From NCBI GenBank assembly GCA_934234215.1, contig CAKQHB010000003.1, forward strand, positions 22,077 through 86,076: a DNA stretch of 64,000 nucleotides, read 5' to 3'. This document shows positions 5,170 through 61,013 of the stretch, one piece after another; within the stretch, counting starts at the first letter, position 1; each line of letters starts with the position of its first letter. Below the pieces are notes generated by a model, which was not told the origin of the DNA, made no database searches, and was given only the letters and a program-made list of their open reading frames with translations. This DNA comes from an uncultured Cuneatibacter sp. (GTDB lineage Bacteria; Bacillota; Clostridia; Lachnospirales; Lachnospiraceae). The translations under genes and the position numbers were made by a program.

Positions 5170-6399
5170 TCAGATGTCCTCCTTCCAGAATTGCAGTTCG
5201 CCGTTTGCGGGCAAATACCAGATTTCCGAAAAGCCGTGGTGCAAAGCGTACTGCTTGTAGTCTTCCAACGATTTTTCCCGATACCACTTCATCATCTGGA
5301 TCTGTCTGCCGTCAGCGCGATACTTTGCCGCTACCGTGATGGCTTCCGTCCGTCTTTTGCGGTCGTAAAGCAGGATGACGTCGGACATCATGCCTTTTAG
5401 ATTTAACTTTTGGCTGCGCATACCGGAAAGCAGAGCATCCATGGAAATACCAAATCCAATGGCGGCTGCATTCTTCCCATACTGCGCGAGCAGGCGATCG
5501 TATCTGCCGCCGTTTATGATGCTTGCACCGGTACCATAAGTAAAAGCGCGAAAGATCACGCCGGTATAATATTCATATTTTCCGACAAGACCGAGATCAA
5601 AGGTGACATACTGTGCTTTTCCGTACAGCTCCAGAATGTGATATACCTTTTCCAGCCGGTCAAGAGCAGCGAGACAGGTGGGATTTTGTGTCAGCGTCCG
5701 CGCCTTTGCAAGACAGGATGTATCGCCAAATAATTCAATCATGCCGGTCAGCGTGCGCTGCAGTGATTCGGAAACGCCCCATTGTCGCAGGCAATCCTCC
5801 GCGGCAAAAAGGTTTTTATCCTCCATGTACTGTCGCAGCTCCAGTCGCTGATCATCGGACAGCCCAGCCTCTTCCACAAGCCCCTGAAAAAAGTTGATGT
5901 TTCCGAGCTCAATTTGAAATTCGGTCAGACCGGCGGCAAGCAGACAGTCCGCCATCATGGCAATCATCTCTGCTTCGGAGTCTGTCGTCTCGTCCCCGAT
6001 CAGCTCGGCGCCCAGCTGTGTCTGCTCCCGCAGACGTCCCTGATAGCCCGTGTGGTTCACGAAGGTACTGCCACAGTAGCAGACCCGCAGCGGCAGATCC
6101 TCCTCGCGAAAATACTTTGCGGCGCAGCGTGCCACTGCCGGTGTGATATCTGGCCGCAGGACCAGGGTTTCACCGTCCCGGTCAATAAATTTAAACATCT
6201 CTCTGGAAGAGACGCTTCCCTTTTCTTTGCTGAACACATCAAAAAATTCAAAGGTGGGAGTCTGAATGCCGCGATAGCCATATCGGTGCAGGATGTCCGT
6301 CATCCGCTCTTCCACCGCCTGCTTTTCGGCATATTCTTTTGTGTAATAGTCCCGGACTCCCTCCGGTGTATGCAGCAGTTTTTTGCTGTTTTGTTCCAT
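5170..6399 (-). CDS. hisZ: ATP phosphoribosyltransferase regulatory subunit HisZ (HisRS paralog)
   Basis: A 409-aa class-II aaRS-like catalytic core with no anticodon-binding domain, sitting immediately upstream of short-form hisG. Confidence 0.85.
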
Positions 6400-21907: not shown

Positions 21908-21954
21908 GGCATCGTAGAGTCAGTTTCTGATTCTGCGGTGCCTTTTATTTTTTT
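21908..21954 (+). terminator. Intrinsic terminator of rpmB
   Basis: 15-bp stem (ggcatcgtagagtca / tgattctgcggtgcc, 3 G-U pairs), loop gtttc, followed by TTTTATTTTTTT. Confidence 0.7.
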
Positions 21955-22019
21955 ATAGGAAATTGCGCTGCATTTCCTATGACGCAAAAAAGCGCTCCGC
22001 GTGGATCGCACTGCGGCGG
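21952..22019 (+). repeat. Truncated copy B of terminator-abutting structured repeat (AT-rich palindrome tataggaaattgcgctgcatttcctat plus linker plus 5' arm of GC hairpin)
   Basis: About 68 nt, nearly identical to the start of the element at 49035-49162. Begins inside the rpmB terminator T-tract. Confidence 0.75.
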
Positions 22020-22110
22020 AAAAGCAAAAAGAGTAATCCTCTAAAACTGGTACAATTGTTTTATACGGATTACTCTTTTCGCATTTGCGGAGTGTTTCTC
22101 TCGATTAAGT

Positions 22111-40183: not shown

Positions 40184-40224
40184 AAAAACGCTGTACAGAA
40201 CGTAAAATCCATTCTGTACAGCGT
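40184..40224 (-). terminator. Intrinsic terminator of purL (12-bp perfect stem acgctgtacaga / tctgtacagcgt, then U-tract on the minus strand)
   Basis: Seen directly, 30 nt downstream of the purL stop. Confidence 0.8.
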
Positions 40225-40254
40225 CTAACCTTTGAAAAATATTTTATTTCAAAA

Positions 40255-43200
40255 TTACTTGAAGTAGTCTACACCGGATTCAAACAGCTTCAGATCCTGC
40301 TCGCCATAGATGTTGACTGCAACGGAATCACCGCGTCTCTCGGAGTGTGCCATCTTACCATAAATACGGCCATCCGGGCTTGTGATACCCTCGATTGCAC
40401 AGTAAGAACCGTTGACGTTCCACTCTTCGTTCATCTCAAGATGTCCGTCTGCATCTACATACTGAGTTGCAACCTGGCCATTTGCGAACAGCTCCTTCAG
40501 CCACTTATCATTGGCAACGAAGCGACCTTCGCCGTGAGAGATCGGGTTGACATATACGCCGCCAAGCTCTGCCTTCTGCAACCAGGGAGACTTGTTGGAG
40601 ACAACCTTCAGATAGGACATTCGGGAAATGTGACGACCGATAGTGTTGTAGGTCAGCGTCGGGGAATCCTCGGTCTGTGCCTGAATATGACCATAGGGAA
40701 CAAGTCCCAGCTTGATCAGTGCCTGGAAACCGTTACAGATACCAAGTACAAGTCCATCTCTCTCATAGATCAGCTTTTCAACCGCTTCTTTTAACTTTTC
40801 ATTGCGGAATGCAGTTGCAAAGAACTTTGCGGAACCTTCCGGCTCATCACCAGCAGAGAAACCACCGGGGAACATCATAATCTGTGCTTTGCGGATGCCT
40901 GCCTCATATGCTTCAACAGACTCACGGATATCGGCTGCGGACTGATTCTTCATAACACAGGTGATCACATCTGCACCAGCTGCCTCAAATGCCTTTGCAC
41001 TGTCGTACTCACAGTTTGTTCCCGGGAATACCGGAATGAAGACCGTGGGCTTTGCAACTTTATTTTTGCAAACGTAGATGGAATCTGCGTGATAAAGCTT
41101 CTCTTCTACCGGCTTCTGAGCGGTGCCGGAGTTGGTCGGGAATACCTTCTCAAGTGGAGCTTTCCAGATGTCCAGTGCCTGCATCAGATCAACCTTTGCA
41201 TCGCCGTACTGGAAAACAGCCTCTTCTGTCACTTCACCGACTACCTCATAAGCGCCCTGCAGTGCCAGTACCTGATCGGCAGGTACTTCTGCGATCAATG
41301 CGCCGTAAGAAGGCGCGAACAGTGTATTCGCAGATACTTCGCCGGCATTGATCTTAACACCAAGGTGATTACCAAATGCCATCTTGGAAACAGCTTCTGC
41401 AATACCCTTTGCGCCAAGTGCATAAGCGGAAATGATTCTGCCAGCCTTAACATTTTCAAAGAAGTCTGCATACTGTCTCTTTAATTCGTTGTAATTCGGC
41501 AGCTCATCTGCATTGCGGTGCATCGTGAACTTCACAAGCTTGTTGCCGGCTTTCTTTAATTCCGGTGTTACAACAGTCTTATCCGATGCAACATCGACTG
41601 CGAAGGAAACAAGAGTCGGCGGAACACTGATGTCACCGAAAGTACCGGACATGGAGTCCTTACCGCCGATGGACGGCAGACCAAATCCGAGCTGTGCATC
41701 GTATGCACCTAACAGTGCAGAGAACGGCTCGCCCCAGCTATGAGGATCGGTGGTCATACGACGGAAATATTCCTGATAGGTCATACGGATCTTGCTGTAG
41801 TCACCGCCGGATGCTACGATCTTCGCGATAGAATCAACGATTGCATAGACAGCGCCGTGGTACGGGCTCCAGGAAGACAGATACGGATCAAAACCATATG
41901 CCATCATCGTTACACAGTCCGTCTTGCCCTTTGCTACCGGCAGTTTTGCGATCATCGCCTGAGTCTCGGTCATCTGATACTTACCACCATAAGGCATCGT
42001 TACGCTGCCTGCACCGATGGAAGCATCGAACATCTCTACAAGACCTTTCTGGGAGCAGACATTCAGATCGCCCAGCATATGCTTCCATGCACCGGCTACA
42101 TCCGCAGGTGCTTCCTTACGGAAGAAATCTCCCTCTGCGGAAGGCGGAGTTACGGTAACATCTGTCTCCTGATGAGCGCCGTTGGTATCAAGAAATGCAC
42201 GGCTGATATTTACGATTTCTTTTCCTCTCCACTTCATAACAAGGCGGGGAGATTCGGTTACCTCTGCAACAACGACTGCTTCCAGGTTTTCGGAAGCGGC
42301 ATATTCTAACATCTGGGGAACATCCTCTTTGCGGACAACAACTGCCATTCTCTCCTGAGATTCGGAGATCGCAATTTCGGTTCCATCCAGACCTGCATAC
42401 TTTTTCGGAACCAGATCCAGATTGATCTGCAGACCGTCTGCCAGCTCACCGATGGCAACGGAAACACCGCCTGCACCAAAGTCGTTACACTTTTTGATCA
42501 TGTGGCTGACTTCTTCTCTGCGGAACAGACGCTGAATCTTACGCTCGGTAGGGGCATTACCCTTCTGAACCTCGGCACCGCAAGTCTCAATCGAAGTAAC
42601 AGTATGTGCCTTGGAAGAACCGGTTGCACCGCCACAGCCGTCACGACCGGTACGACCACCTAACAGAATGATCTGATCGCCGGGATCGGAGGTCAGGCGA
42701 ACAACCGCTCTGCGGGGAGCTGCACCCATAACAGCACCGATCTCCATTCTCTTTGCAACGTAGTTCGGATGATAGATTTCTTTTACATAACCGGTTGCCA
42801 GACCAATCTGGTTGCCGTAGGAGCTGTAGCCGCTGGCAGCGGAACGAACGATCTTCTTCTGGGGAAGTTTGCCCTCCAATGTCTTGGAGACACTGACGGT
42901 AGGATCAGCGGCACCGGTAACACGCATTGCCTGATAAACGTAGGTACGTCCGGACAGCGGATCACGGATCGCACCGCCGAGGCAGGTAGCGGCACCACCG
43001 AAAGGCTCGATCTCTGTCGGGTGGTTATGTGTCTCATTCTTGAAGTTGACCAGCCACTCTTCGGTCTTGCCGTCTACTTCTACCGGGACTACGATGGAGC
43101 AGGCATTGATCTCATCGGATTCTTCCTGATCGTCCAAAAGTCCCTCTCTCTTTAACTTTCTGGCCCCCATCGTTGCCAGGTCCATCAGGCAGACAAACTT

Positions 43201-44007
43201 GTCATTTCTGCCTGCAAAAATTTCCTTGTGATCGGAAACATACTGCTGGAATGCTTTCTCGATGGCATCCTTTGCATAACCTTCCTCGAAAGTGACATTT
43301 TTCAGTTCGGTCTGGAAGGTGGTGTGACGGCAATGGTCAGACCAGTAGGTATCCAGCACACGAATCTCCGTCATGGAAGGATCTCTCTTCTCCTCATCAT
43401 GGAAATACTTCTGAATATGAAGGAAGTCCTTGAATGTCATCGCCAGATTCAGGGAAGTGTATAATTCCTTTAATTCTGCTTCCGGCATCGTGGAAAATCC
43501 ATCGAAGATCAGAACGTCTGCCGGTTCTTCAAACTTTGTTACCAGAGTGTCCGGAATCTCTTCTCCGGCTTCTCTGGAATCTACCGGGTTGATACAGTGG
43601 GACTTGATCGCAGCAATCTCCGTCTCACTGACCTGACCGGAAATAACATAAGTCGTAGCGGTCTTGATGACCGGCTCTTCCTCCTCTGCCAGCAGGCGAA
43701 CACACTGCTCTGCAGAATCCGCTCTCTGGTCGAACTGTCCAGGCAGATATTCTACGGAAAAGATGGTATCATCCGCTTCATGGGGAAACTCTCCCTCATA
43801 AAGATCATCTACCGGAGGCTCCGAAAAAATGGTGTTTAATGCTTTTGCATATACGTCCTCTGAAATATTTTCTACATCATACCGGATCAGAACACGAACC
43901 GCCTTTGCTGTGTGAATATTCAGATAGCTGGCGATCTCTTCTTCCAGCTCTCTGGCTTTTACAGCAAAGTCTATTTTTTTCTCCACATATACTCTCTTTA
44001 CGCTCAT
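40255..44007 (-). CDS. purL: Phosphoribosylformylglycinamidine synthase, large single-chain form
   Basis: 1250 aa with fused PurS-like, FGAM synthetase (AIRS/AIRS_C duplications) and C-terminal glutamine amidotransferase domains. Confidence 0.92.
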   Translation of the reverse strand: MSVKRVYVEKKIDFAVKARELEEEIASYLNIHTAKAVRVLIRYDVENISEDVYAKALNTIFSEPPVDDLYEGEFPHEADDTIFSVEYLPGQFDQRADSAEQCVRLLAEEEEPVIKTATTYVISGQVSETEIAAIKSHCINPVDSREAGEEIPDTLVTKFEEPADVLIFDGFSTMPEAELKELYTSLNLAMTFKDFLHIQKYFHDEEKRDPSMTEIRVLDTYWSDHCRHTTFQTELKNVTFEEGYAKDAIEKAFQQYVSDHKEIFAGRNDKFVCLMDLATMGARKLKREGLLDDQEESDEINACSIVVPVEVDGKTEEWLVNFKNETHNHPTEIEPFGGAATCLGGAIRDPLSGRTYVYQAMRVTGAADPTVSVSKTLEGKLPQKKIVRSAASGYSSYGNQIGLATGYVKEIYHPNYVAKRMEIGAVMGAAPRRAVVRLTSDPGDQIILLGGRTGRDGCGGATGSSKAHTVTSIETCGAEVQKGNAPTERKIQRLFRREEVSHMIKKCNDFGAGGVSVAIGELADGLQINLDLVPKKYAGLDGTEIAISESQERMAVVVRKEDVPQMLEYAASENLEAVVVAEVTESPRLVMKWRGKEIVNISRAFLDTNGAHQETDVTVTPPSAEGDFFRKEAPADVAGAWKHMLGDLNVCSQKGLVEMFDASIGAGSVTMPYGGKYQMTETQAMIAKLPVAKGKTDCVTMMAYGFDPYLSSWSPYHGAVYAIVDSIAKIVASGGDYSKIRMTYQEYFRRMTTDPHSWGEPFSALLGAYDAQLGFGLPSIGGKDSMSGTFGDISVPPTLVSFAVDVASDKTVVTPELKKAGNKLVKFTMHRNADELPNYNELKRQYADFFENVKAGRIISAYALGAKGIAEAVSKMAFGNHLGVKINAGEVSANTLFAPSYGALIAEVPADQVLALQGAYEVVGEVTEEAVFQYGDAKVDLMQALDIWKAPLEKVFPTNSGTAQKPVEEKLYHADSIYVCKNKVAKPTVFIPVFPGTNCEYDSAKAFEAAGADVITCVMKNQSAADIRESVEAYEAGIRKAQIMMFPGGFSAGDEPEGSAKFFATAFRNEKLKEAVEKLIYERDGLVLGICNGFQALIKLGLVPYGHIQAQTEDSPTLTYNTIGRHISRMSYLKVVSNKSPWLQKAELGGVYVNPISHGEGRFVANDKWLKELFANGQVATQYVDADGHLEMNEEWNVNGSYCAIEGITSPDGRIYGKMAHSERRGDSVAVNIYGEQDLKLFESGVDYFK

Positions 44008-48865: not shown

Positions 48866-48900
48866 CAATACCTATAGGTTATGATATAACAATAGAGCAG
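48866..48900 (+). promoter_or_regulatory. Putative sigma-A promoter of tRNA-Trp (TTGACA-17-TATAAC)
   Basis: Consensus -35 and near-consensus -10, about 30 nt upstream of the tRNA 5' end. Confidence 0.5.
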
Positions 48901-48926
48901 TTGCGAGAGCGACAGCAAATCAATAA

Positions 48927-48997
48927 AGGGGAATAGTTCAATGGCAGAGCAACGGTCTCCAAAACCGTTAATGGGAGTTCGAATCTCTCTTCCCCTG
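48927..48997 (+). tRNA. tRNA-Trp (anticodon CCA)
   Basis: Hand-folded cloverleaf. Acceptor AGGGGAA/TTCCCCT, anticodon stem ACGGT/ACCGT with loop CTCCAAA, T-arm GGGAG-TTCGAAT-CTCTC, discriminator G. Close to the B. subtilis tRNA-Trp sequence. The 3' CCA is not encoded. Confidence 0.85.
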
Positions 48998-49007
48998 CTT
49001 CAAAGAT

Positions 49008-49033
49008 CAGTCGATTGAGACTGGTCTTTTTTT
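49008..49033 (+). terminator. Terminator after tRNA-Trp (cagtc-gattga-gactg plus T-tract)
   Basis: Short hairpin followed by nine T residues. Confidence 0.5.
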
Positions 49034-49034
49034 A

Positions 49035-49162
49035 CTTTATAGGAAATTGCGTCGCATTTCCTATAAAGTAAAAAAGCGCTACGCATGGATCCGCACTGCG
49101 GCGGAACAGAATTTGTCGCTTCGCGACCCGCCGCAGGCGGAGAATCCTGCGGAGCAGGATTC
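49035..49162 (+). repeat. Full copy A of the terminator-abutting structured repeat (three hairpins)
   Basis: Hairpin 1 is an AT-rich palindrome ctttataggaaat-tgcgtcgca-tttcctataaag. A linker aaaaagcgctacgcatggatc follows. Hairpin 2 is gcactgcggcgg...gtcgcttcgcgac...ccgccgcaggcgg. Hairpin 3 is gaatcctgc-gga-gcaggattc. The other two copies are at 21952-22019 and 40064-40183. Confidence 0.8.
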
Positions 49163-49194
49163 TATTTTTATTTCCGACAAGCAGATAATATTAA

Positions 49195-49250
49195 AAGAAG
49201 GAAGAAATTCGGTATGTAATAAGGAACTTCTTCCTTTTTTTGTTCTGCAA
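49195..49250. terminator. Bidirectional terminator between the repeat and radA (aaggaagaaatt...aacttcttcctt plus T-tracts)
   Basis: 12-bp stem with one mismatch, flanked by A and T runs. Confidence 0.5.
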
Positions 49251-49264
49251 ATTTTTTGCTGATT

Positions 49265-50647
49265 TTATTTTTTCTCTTTTTTCAAATACTGCAGCACTTC
49301 ACTGAGATTTTTTACACCGACACAGTGCATCCCCTTGGGAATATCCAGTCCTTCCAGTGCTACCTGCGGTGCAATGCAAGTAGAAAATCCCAGCTTTGAA
49401 GCTTCCTGCAATCTCTTCGCACACTGACTGACGCTTCGCACTTCGCCGGAAATACCAACTTCTCCGAATGCCATCGTGTGTTCGTCCACTTCAATATCCA
49501 GATAGCTGGAAATCAGTGCGATCACGATTGCCAGATCCATAGACGGCTCGGATACCCGCATACCGCCAGTGACATTGACATAGGCATCACACTGCCCCAG
49601 AGATAGGTGCAGGCGTTTTTCCAGCACTGCCATGAGCAGGTTCACACGGTTATAATCCGTGCCGACTGCAGTTCGTCTCGGCATGCCAAAGTTTGTCCGG
49701 CATACAAGTGCCTGTACTTCCATCAGGATCGGCCTCGTTCCCTCCACGGAACAGGACACAACCGAACCGGATGCATGCTCCGGTCTTCCCTGCAGCAGAT
49801 ATGCCGAAGGGTTTTCCACCTCCCGCAGACCGGTATTCTGCATCTCAAAGACACCAATCTCGTTTGTGGATCCAAAACGGTTCTTTACGGCACGCAGGAT
49901 ACGATAAGAAGCACTGCGGTCGCCCTCAAAGTACAGAACTGTATCTACCATATGTTCCAGAACACGGGGACCTGCCACCATGCCCTCTTTCGTCACATGA
50001 CCAACCAGAAATGTGGCAATACCCTCTCCCTTTGCCAACTGGAGCAGCTGATTCGTACACTCCCGCACCTGTCCGACACTGCCCGGAGCCGAAGAAATAT
50101 CCTCCCGAAACATTGTCTGAATGGAATCAATAACAACAAGATCCGGCTTTTGCTCCCGGATCGTCTCCGAGATCGTATCCAGATTTGTCTCGCACAGCAG
50201 ATACAATCCCTCTTCGAATTCGCCCATACGGTCTGCACGCATCTTAATCTGCCGTTTGGACTCCTCGCCGGAAATATATAAGACCTTTTTACCGGAAGAA
50301 ACGAGATTCCGACACATCTGCAGCAAAATCGTGGATTTTCCAATGCCGGGATCTCCGCCGATCAGTACAAGAGATGCCGGGACAATTCCGCCTCCCAGCA
50401 CACGATCCATCTCTAAAATCCCGCTGGAAAAGCGAGGCTCCTCCTCAGTGGAAATCTCCCGAAGTCGTACCGGAATTCTTTTTTCCCGGCTCTCTGCAGC
50501 GGACAGCTTTCTGCCCTTCCCGGAAGACTTCGGTGCAGTCGGTTCTTCTACCAGCGTATTCCAGTTTTTGCAGCTGGGGCATTGCCCCAGCCACTTTGGT
50601 GTTTCATATCCGCATTCTTTACAGAAAAAGACGCTGGTGCTCTTCAT
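49265..50647 (-). CDS. radA: DNA repair protein RadA/Sms
   Basis: N-terminal zinc finger CKECGYETPKWLGQCPSC, RecA-like Walker A GDPGIGKST and Lon-like C-terminal domain. Confidence 0.92.
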   Translation of the reverse strand: MKSTSVFFCKECGYETPKWLGQCPSCKNWNTLVEEPTAPKSSGKGRKLSAAESREKRIPVRLREISTEEEPRFSSGILEMDRVLGGGIVPASLVLIGGDPGIGKSTILLQMCRNLVSSGKKVLYISGEESKRQIKMRADRMGEFEEGLYLLCETNLDTISETIREQKPDLVVIDSIQTMFREDISSAPGSVGQVRECTNQLLQLAKGEGIATFLVGHVTKEGMVAGPRVLEHMVDTVLYFEGDRSASYRILRAVKNRFGSTNEIGVFEMQNTGLREVENPSAYLLQGRPEHASGSVVSCSVEGTRPILMEVQALVCRTNFGMPRRTAVGTDYNRVNLLMAVLEKRLHLSLGQCDAYVNVTGGMRVSEPSMDLAIVIALISSYLDIEVDEHTMAFGEVGISGEVRSVSQCAKRLQEASKLGFSTCIAPQVALEGLDIPKGMHCVGVKNLSEVLQYLKKEKK

Positions 50648-60914: not shown

Positions 60915-61013
60915 AGCAGATGCTGGGGGAGCCTGAAAAGGCTGAGAAATGAAAGTTGACCCTTATTACTTGAACCGGGTAATGCCGGCGTAAGGAAGCG
61001 CTCTTTTCTTTCA
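60915..61013 (+). ncRNA. TPP (THI-box) riboswitch
   Basis: Conserved motifs CTGGGGGAGCC...GGCTGAGA...ACCCTT...GAACC...AATGCCGGCG...AGGAAG. Confidence 0.85.

Follow-up and report, generated by a model that had tools for sequence, protein, structure and literature searches.

To our knowledge, class IIC group II introns are the only mobile family that targets the intrinsic transcription terminator as a structure. These ribozymes of at least 600 nt begin with GUGYG, comprise domains I-VI and usually carry a reverse transcriptase (RT) open reading frame (ORF). Their insertions have a fixed orientation, lie a few nucleotides past a terminator stem-loop and show no target duplication, and their T-rich 5′ flank pairs internally (IBS1-EBS1). 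The splice sites of these introns are located 3-11 nt past the stem-loop (PMC1702495). In this study we analyzed a 64,000-nt stretch of DNA of an uncultured Cuneatibacter sp. of the Lachnospiraceae (contig CAKQHB010000003.1, positions 22,077 to 86,076; hereafter the window), which contains three copies of a gene-less element with the same habits: it is placed in one orientation a few nucleotides past a terminator hairpin, no target duplication is seen, and the T-run of its 5′ flank pairs with an A-run in its first hairpin (H1), but it is only about 130 nt long and starts with ACTTT-ATAGG. It is rather probable that this is a non-autonomous, terminator-targeting mobile DNA element which is moved in trans, presumably as folded single-stranded DNA. 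It constitutes type A of a larger superfamily of gut Lachnospiraceae.

Copy 1 (window positions 49034-49171, forward strand) is located behind the terminator of the tRNA-Trp gene (48927-48998), the full-length copy 2 (40183-40053, reverse strand) behind that of purL, between purL and pstS, and the 3′-truncated copy 3 (21955-22024, forward strand) behind that of rpmB. A preliminary description, made by a model from the sequence alone, had reported three copies at or near these coordinates and had named the same upstream genes. Both statements were borne out, the latter by a tRNA scan and by protein domains: purL (40255-44007, reverse strand) encodes a 1250-aa protein with FGAR-AT, AIRS_C and GATase_5 domains, and rpmB was identified by Ribosomal_L28. 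The 15-mer CGCACTGCGGCGGAA occurs exactly three times in the window, and the palindrome pattern of H1 matches twice (0.00 expected). In alignments, copy 1 shows 95% identity to copy 2, which is inverted, across 59 nt and 85% identity to copy 3 across 66 nt. Each copy begins immediately past the hairpin and T-run of a terminator, and the three terminators are unrelated.

Within the window's species the element is polymorphic for presence and absence, with defined junctions. Other strains of this species were retrieved through exact-protein matches (retrieved loci are cited by L numbers). The rpmB site is empty in L112-L114, which read ...GGTGCC TTTTATTTTTTT|GCTTTAATTG..., and also in L115 and L116, which represent a diverged strain. 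The allele of the window runs from T-tract|ATAGG... to GGCGGAAAAG, where it is joined to the flank 33 nt further on, and L117 carries a different copy at the same rpmB point. The left junction, T-tract|ATAGG, is given by the window and L117 compared with the empty L112-L114. The right junction of a full copy is seen in L144 (...GCAGGATTC TATTTTTAT|ATGTGCC) compared with the empty L116 (...TCTTATTTTTT|ATGTATC), giving the right-end sequence ...GGATTCTATTTTTAT|ATGT. The empty and filled rpmB alleles thus indicate insertion at the 3′ side of the T-tract. Since the 9-nt tail TATTTTTAT is identical in L144 (at rpmB) and in copy 1 (at tRNA-Trp), with a different flank beyond it, the tail belongs to the element, which is real but runs a few bases further than the preliminary description had proposed.

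The element's two ends, ATAGGAAAT... and ...GGATTCTATTTTTAT, do not form inverted repeats. The element resembles bacterial MITEs (miniature transposable elements with inverted repeats) such as Correia, RUP and bcr1 in its size, copy number, intergenic location, strain polymorphism and stable hairpins, and some of these MITEs also supply terminators. MITEs, however, are derived from DDE transposons, are bounded by terminal inverted repeats and are flanked by target duplications of fixed length. Neither feature is seen here, and the present insertions are orientation-specific with respect to a structural target. A DDE-type MITE was rejected on the grounds of these two missing features.

The tRNA-Trp site is filled in the majority of strains, and several contigs terminate within the element there, which is expected of a multi-copy repeat. 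In L123 and L127 a repeat of another family, designated B, lies against the same right flank of the tRNA-Trp/radA site. In L130 and L131 the purL-pstS spacer occurs as a short allele, in which H1's left arm, a diverged remnant resembling the third hairpin, H3 (CAGCAAAGCTTGATTTT), and the tail are preserved. Because both ends of the element are kept, this allele is probably an internal deletion. Its reading as an empty site, implying that 21 nt of the target had been copied in inverted form, was rejected, since the left core, the H3 remnant and the tail are retained. Three clustered differences between the L130/L131 remnant and H3 of the window are left without explanation by a deletion. The mobility suspected in the preliminary description is shown by the rpmB alleles within a single species, by the second copy at the same point and by the contigs that break inside the element.

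The 5-nt segment preceding the H1 core is variable. The same pentamers recur at unrelated loci (ACTTT in copy 1, L137, L150 and L228; GCTTT in L155 and L157), so that the segment is probably carried by the element; the junction would then lie 5-8 nt past the target stem.

The association with terminators was measured as the best hairpin ending at the start of the T-run, with a threshold of -9 kcal or better. The 40 genome copies with H1 gave a median free energy (dG) of -13.7 kcal, and 77.5% of them (31/40) reached the threshold; the corresponding values in the genome sample were -5.5 kcal and 24% for random positions, and -5.4 kcal and 21% for random T5 runs. A metagenome sample of 99 non-identical copies, picked by the H1 core alone, gave -13.5 kcal and 80%, compared with -4.6 kcal and 17% for random positions (Fisher p = 1e-29 for an abutting hairpin). 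The terminator association, first noticed in the three window copies, therefore holds in two independent samples. The upstream hairpins have no shared sequence, and the most frequent spacing between the T-run start and the ATAGG core is 11-14 nt.

Insertion always occurs in the same orientation, sense to the terminator, and the orientation relative to the local gene strand reflects the upstream gene only. The targets include (i) terminators of protein genes, (ii) those of six tRNA genes, (iii) T-box leaders (L010 and L102 according to Rfam, L043 by eye), (iv) riboswitches recognized by Rfam (glycine in L054, thiamine pyrophosphate (TPP) in L078), and (v) the 3′ hairpin of another copy, which results in tandem or mixed arrays (L009, L010, L054, L080, L063, L094, L098). 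Besides the window's species, one different species has a copy at rpmB. The copies situated between an attenuator and an ORF lie within positions 133-500 of L102, 50-331 of L078, 5768-6240 of L010 and 5937-6400 of L054. In the two tandem cases among these, the last copy has lost its H3.

The element is multi-copy and has spread across genera. A species-level scan (one genome per species) with an 18-nt motif of the second hairpin, H2, returned at least 111 loci. Among the matches listed, about 45, from about 25 Lachnospiraceae genomes, carry the type A element; the others are chance matches in GC-rich coding DNA, without H1. The hosts are Blautia, Roseburia, Eubacterium sp. 14-2, Lachnoclostridium and several metagenome-assembled genomes (MAGs), all of Lachnospiraceae type, with at least 10 copies in one MAG and at least 6 in one isolate. 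The preliminary description had left room for a local duplication of three loci, which is excluded by these further copies.

The element is also present on a Roseburia megaplasmid and on the C. perfringens plasmid p21-D-5b, within a mobilizable island bearing Lachnospiraceae-type genes (L270, 4232-4333). The latter copy hints at transfer of the element between families as a passenger; it is located about 100 nt upstream of a tetrahydrofolate (THF) riboswitch and folT. The GenBank entries named 'Bacteriophage sp.' gave 22 matches, in records within MT835xxx-MT839xxx from human faeces. One of them, L137 (MT835478.1, 25077-28188), has the coding sequence for the C-terminal end of ribosomal protein L28 directly upstream of the element, and at least part of these records thus appear to be bacterial. 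Carriage by phages was rejected, given this rpmB-bearing record and the 0 true matches obtained when the phage contigs of IMG/VR were scanned.

The anatomy of type A is best followed in copy 1. The resident tRNA-Trp intrinsic terminator (49002-49033, forward strand; stem approximately 49005-49026, T-run 49027-49033; scored as a terminator-like site at 49002-49029) is the target, lies outside the element and folds as a hairpin of its own. H1 (49034-49075) is composed of the variable pentamer ACTTT (49034-49038), the core ATAGGAAAT, a loop and the second core arm ATTTCCTAT (all within 49039-49064), followed by AAAGT and an A-run (up to 49075). Its 20-bp stem (49028-49047/49056-49075, 20/20 complementary) includes the T-run of the terminator, paired with the A-run inside the element. 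The palindrome earlier ascribed to the element alone is therefore present, but its outer part is made with the terminator's T-run. The linker (49076-49091) is predicted by folding to contain a mini-hairpin (GCG-CTA-CGC, 49076-49084) that is absent from the preliminary description, followed by a conserved GGAT motif; other copies have variants of this mini-hairpin (GCCC/GGGC, GCAC/GTGC, GCGC/GCGT). H2 (49092-49140, stem to 49139) is a GC-rich forked hairpin consisting, in order, of CGC, a bulged A, a 9-bp outer stem, a 10-nt purine-rich loop on the 5′ side, the inner hairpin GTCGC-TTC-GCGAC (49115-49127), the second strand of the outer stem and GCG. The right end of the element (49141-49171) is formed by H3 (AGAATCCTGC-GGA-GCAGGATTCT, 49141-49163), which was scored as terminator-like, and by the T-rich tail TATTTTTAT, ending at 49171.

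The region 49000-49172 folds as the tRNA terminator and four hairpins; the three described earlier are present, but the mini-hairpin brings their number to four. The predicted RNA fold of this region has an energy of -85.9 kcal (z = -9.7; 0/200 shuffles as good), and the DNA fold -54.4 kcal (z = -11.3; no shuffle as good).

Copy 2 shows the same folding pattern. Its target, the resident purL terminator (40184-40225, reverse strand; stem 40225-40189, T-run 40188-40184), is followed by the variable segment GCGTTAT, a degenerate core (ATAGAAAA/TTTCTAT), H2 (40133-40086), the terminator-like H3 (40084-40063) and the tail. The H3 module of both full copies (49141-49163 and 40084-40063) has the sequence features of an intrinsic terminator, i.e. 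a GC-containing stem-loop and then a T-rich run. The target of copy 3 is the resident rpmB terminator (21915-21954, forward strand; stem to 21942, T-tract TTTTATTTTTTT at 21943-21954; dG -25.3 kcal), the sequence of which is identical in the strains without the element (L112-L114). This copy contains H1, the linker and the first strand of H2 as far as GGCGGAAAAG; compared with the empty alleles, the remaining part of the element and 33 nt of the flank are gone. The break after GGCGGAAAAG, in the loop of H2 (window 22017-22024), is common to copy 3 and L069, and in L022 it occurs one base later. The chimeras of types A and B switch a few bases beyond this break, which looks like a hot spot of recombination or cleavage.

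Concerted changes keep the extended H1 stem paired, as seen in L063 compared with the orthologous L094, and in L085, L074 and L117. They point either to selection for the hairpin or to hairpin-templated correction.

A metagenome scan with the H1 core revealed at least 120 loci, and type A accounts for 14 of the 120 listed. The loci listed share H1 and have at least 10 different bodies of one architecture, and the H1 core is conserved in all subfamilies. The shared plan begins with the T-run, a 5-nt variable segment, ATAGGAAAT, a loop, ATTTCCTAT, the complement of the variable segment and the A-run, followed by a small hairpin and the GGAT motif. The forked hairpin then starts with GCG or CGC, an invariant bulged A and an outer stem of 8-10 bp, continues with a purine-rich loop of 10-11 nt on the 5′ side only (..GAAWWT) and an inner hairpin stacked on the 3′ strand, and ends with the closing strands. 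The 3′ end consists of a terminal hairpin and its T-rich tail. The outer stems of the subfamilies are wholly different in sequence, and still complementary (CTGCGGCGG, CTGGTGCGC, GAGGCGCGG, CGATGTGC, GATGCGCG, CCAGATGCA); at least 7 unrelated H2 outer-stem sequences keep their complementarity. The structure covaries: in an alignment of 20 sequences, H2 pairing was found in 83% of the cells compared with 71% in shuffles (0/500 reaching the observed value), 10 H2 pairs were changed on both sides, and the covariation score was 0.302 compared with 0.116 for shuffled alignments (0/500 reaching it) and at most 0.118 for slid controls. In type A taken by itself, the outer stem does not vary, and covariation is confined to the inner hairpin.

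The stable fold, the covariation in H2, the inner hairpin and H3, the conserved unpaired bulged A and ..GAAWWT loop, and the terminator-like 3′ end would also suit a family of functional small RNAs (sRNAs) or 3′ untranslated region (UTR) modules, selected at the RNA level and multiplied by duplication of a useful RNA rather than by selfish mobility. Such a family was suggested in the preliminary description, and the suggestion gains no support. A promoter scan found no sigma-70-like site in the two full window copies, which are located behind strong terminators. A promoter within H1 was rejected, as its -10-like strings vary with the variable segment and the scan found none. Rfam 15, at its gathering score, gave no match on the element in the window or in 48 loci, the only hits being to tRNA, rRNA, T-box and riboswitches (TPP, glycine, THF, NiCo); at E up to 10, the region 48900-49300 showed only generic hairpin (miRNA) noise on the element and no Intron_gpII. 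Moreover, the positions are not orthologous and are strain-polymorphic, tandem arrays, chimeras and truncated copies are common, the sense strand has no excess of G.U-compatible mismatches, and the DNA fold is equally significant. We consider an RNA family of this kind very unlikely.

The superfamily also includes several irregular forms. Solo copies of H1, from T-run to A-run and with no H2/H3 body, are found behind hairpins in L163, L172, L174, L175, L189, L244 and L245; they represent either remnants left by deletion or a mobile module of minimal size. Family B has the sequence ...CCCCTCATGAATGAGGGG..GGGGAGTTGA.., a terminal hairpin and a T-run. A complete B element has its own H1, and its H2 is built on the plan seen in type A. 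B forms chimeras and arrays with type A and occurs at L063 (6572-6642), L094, L024, L037, L106 and L074, with A-B chimeras in L024, L037 and L106. A 58-nt structured insertion is present in the H2 apex of L097 (reverse complement, 5200-5540), L016 has insertions within H3, and in L004 (reverse complement, approximately 2250-2480) H3 has grown to a 21-bp perfect palindrome that takes in flanking bases.

Such hybrid and truncated forms, with their microhomology junctions (AAAAG|CAAAAAG in copy 3, the A-B chimeras, the recurrent break after GGCGGAAAAG), raise the question of whether any dedicated protein is required. The nascent strand might slip between T-runs during replication, copy the unit and return via the T-rich tail, and host selection might then retain the copies as back-up terminators or 3′-end stabilizers, in the manner of REP/BIME. 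Both junctions do lie in T-rich sequence, with neither inverted terminal repeats nor a target duplication seen, H3 scores as a terminator, and no linked enzyme gene was found in the loci examined. However, a microhomology of 5-8 T residues would not select this particular sequence. Dozens of copies per genome, and the conservation of the core ATAGGAAAT, the bulged A and the loop motif in at least 10 subfamilies and several genera, point to specific recognition, and the presence of two different copies at exactly the same rpmB position, together with the occupation of rpmB in a second species, suggests efficient targeting. Spread by copy-choice is, in our view, improbable.

No gene linked to the element was found in the loci examined. 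ORFs were clustered around 48 type A copies (fetched loci of up to 8 kb) and 122 H1 copies (2.5 kb), and no transposase or RT family recurs near them; the recurring ORFs were only those of ABC transporters, two-component systems and chemoreceptors, RNase Y, and spurious ones. In 48 and 120 loci of 2-15 kb the copies had no gene of RAYT, IS200-like or intron type in their vicinity and no related autonomous insertion sequence with tnpA and the same ends, and the check proposed in the preliminary description, for a RAYT/IS200-like transposase or a group II intron that could mobilize the element, thus revealed no such gene near any copy examined. The element itself contains no ORF. No description of such an element was found in the literature searched.

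The preliminary description had compared the element with class C group II introns, and with respect to behavior the analogy is a good one: the type of target and the orientation rule are the same, and the spacing is similar. The element is nevertheless not such an intron. A remnant or derivative of a class IIC intron would have to account for a length of about 130 nt instead of at least 600 nt, for a start at ATAGG or the variable pentamer instead of GUGYG, and for the lack of any ribozyme core, no domain V/VI having been matched by Rfam in 48900-49300 at E up to 10. Neither an RT nor any other intron-encoded protein was found nearby, and it is the 5′ end that is constant here, whereas truncated retroelements keep the 3′ end. 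This origin is hardly credible.

Another RNA-based route was considered, in which a transcript ending at the element's own H3 terminator is reverse-transcribed and joined at another termination point, by template switching onto a terminated RNA 3′ end or by priming in the A/T-tract. Intrinsic termination releases the RNA 8-9 nt after the stem, and the right boundary of the element, 8-9 nt past the H3 stem, coincides with this release point; the left junction would lie 5-8 nt past the target stem if the 5-nt variable segment is element-borne. Abundant terminated RNAs also look over-represented among the targets, with tRNA genes before 6 of about 50 copies, rpmB in two species, and riboswitch or T-box leaders before 5 of about 50 copies (four confirmed by Rfam, one by eye), and the orientation is always sense to the terminator. 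Several observations do not fit. The two full window copies have no promoter-like site, and the 5′ boundary falls in the variable segment; no RT was found near the copies examined. The truncated copies (copy 3, L069, L022) have no 3′ part, the opposite of what incomplete reverse transcription leaves. At rpmB the full 12-nt T-tract is kept, which is longer than a typical released U-tail, and there is no known route by which the cDNA would be integrated on the downstream side. A retro-element of this type seems to us decidedly improbable, slightly more so than copy-choice.

We favor mobilization in trans by a structure-specific and strand-specific enzyme, which would act on folded single-stranded DNA. 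Integration takes place in a single orientation, into or at the end of the T-tract past the terminator hairpin, and leaves neither inverted terminal repeats nor a target duplication that can be resolved. The A-rich distal arm of H1 pairs with the T-run of whichever terminator precedes it, and this pairing of the flanking T-run with the internal A-run would set the left junction, by analogy with the guide of IS608 or with IBS1-EBS1 of the IIC introns. In IS608 the flanking cleavage site is read through pairing with an internal 'guide'. The right module resembles an intrinsic terminator and is followed by an 8-9-nt T-rich tail, and the enzyme would read 'hairpin + 8-12 T-rich nt, then cut' at the right end of the element and at the target alike. 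As the 3′ end of the element is again a hairpin with a T-rich tail, insertion restores a terminator-like end and offers a fresh target, hence the tandem and mixed arrays. Among candidate enzymes are HUH/Y1 transposases related to those of IS200/IS605 or to RAYT and, alternatively, tyrosine recombinases with a mode of action like that of IntI on attC or of XerCD on CTX phage.

The first of these candidates recalls the palindrome-associated transposable elements (PATEs) of IS200/IS605 and the REP/BIME repeats with their RAYT (Y1 HUH) proteins, which are likewise small, non-coding and multi-copy, with subterminal hairpins and no inverted terminal repeats. PATEs share the insertion on the 3′ side of a short motif, specific for strand and orientation. 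REP/BIME share the mosaics of differing hairpin modules downstream of genes, the GC-rich imperfect palindrome (H2 in this case) and the mixed arrays, here of A, B and C. In PATEs, however, the subterminal hairpins of the two ends are alike and are bound by one and the same TnpA, whereas the H1 core (ATAGGAAAT/ATTTCCTAT) and H3 (GAATCCTGC/GCAGGATTC) have unrelated sequences; the pairing between flank and element is of 4 nt in IS200/IS605, compared with at least 6-12 nt, continuous with the hairpin, in the present element, whose target also includes the upstream hairpin. The element has no conserved GTAG-type tetranucleotide as found in REP/BIME, and no tnpA, tnpB or RAYT gene bearing it or flanked by it was found in about 230 loci.

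The second candidate is suggested by an analogy with attC/IntI and CTX attP/XerCD, namely an imperfect hairpin with an extra-helical base and a one-sided loop, in which structure is kept over stem sequence, a location at the 3′ end of genes, and a recombination point in a stem formed partly by neighboring DNA. This likeness would be one of architecture only. Neither an integron integrase nor attI or a cassette organization was seen, no R-box (GTTRRRY) was noticed by eye, and the copies are dispersed behind housekeeping genes. A possible similarity of the H1 core to the arm of the Bacillus dif/Xer site was discarded; the arms are arranged differently. The element thus behaves like class IIC introns, PATEs and BIMEs, and is not a demonstrable member of any of these groups.

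Several points weigh against a DNA element mobilized in trans. About 230 loci yielded no enzyme and no autonomous relative with the same ends. H1 and H3 are dissimilar, unlike the left- and right-end hairpins of IS200/IS605. True empty alleles are available at rpmB only, the left and right junctions there come from different strains, and no duplication is seen at these junctions, where a few duplicated T residues would go undetected. The sequence of H2 is strongly conserved across genera within type A and, as with the concerted changes in H1, this could reflect a function for the host or at the RNA level, not transposition signals. The numbers of G.T and A.C mismatches (14 and 11, respectively) do not tell RNA structure from DNA structure. 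Finally, in L102, L078 and L010 an intact terminator-like H3 separates a T-box or riboswitch attenuator from its regulated ORF, which is puzzling, because an unconditional terminator there should be harmful.

A more far-reaching, and unlikely, proposal is that of a new class of mobile elements that targets the intrinsic terminator, the transcription complex in the act of terminating or the 3′ end of the terminated RNA, with both element boundaries falling at points of transcript release and the conserved forked hairpin recruiting RNA-guided, RNA-templated or hijacked host machinery. If this were true, the superfamily would be a widespread force remodeling 3′ ends and riboswitch leaders in human-gut Firmicutes.

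With a mobile DNA element moved in trans, as favored above, a gene-less unit of 130 nt rebuilds a terminator on landing, which may explain why its copies seem to be so numerous in essential regions. Among the dominant gut bacteria of humans and animals (Blautia, Roseburia, Eubacterium and relatives) the superfamily is abundant, and it breaks metagenome assemblies. It is located at the 3′ ends of genes for tRNAs and ribosomal proteins and within riboswitch/T-box leaders, and is absent from Rfam. Its cataloguing would improve the annotation of 3′ UTRs, sRNA candidates and terminators, and the mobilizing activity, once found, could reveal a new mechanism of structure-guided DNA insertion.

Two further structures were noted in the window. 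A TPP (THI element) riboswitch aptamer (60915-61013, forward strand, 66 bits) has no relation to the element. A separate AT-rich hairpin (49192-49246), situated between A- and T-runs in the interval separating copy 1 from radA (49265-50647, reverse strand), lies outside the element and is probably a bidirectional terminator or the terminator of radA.

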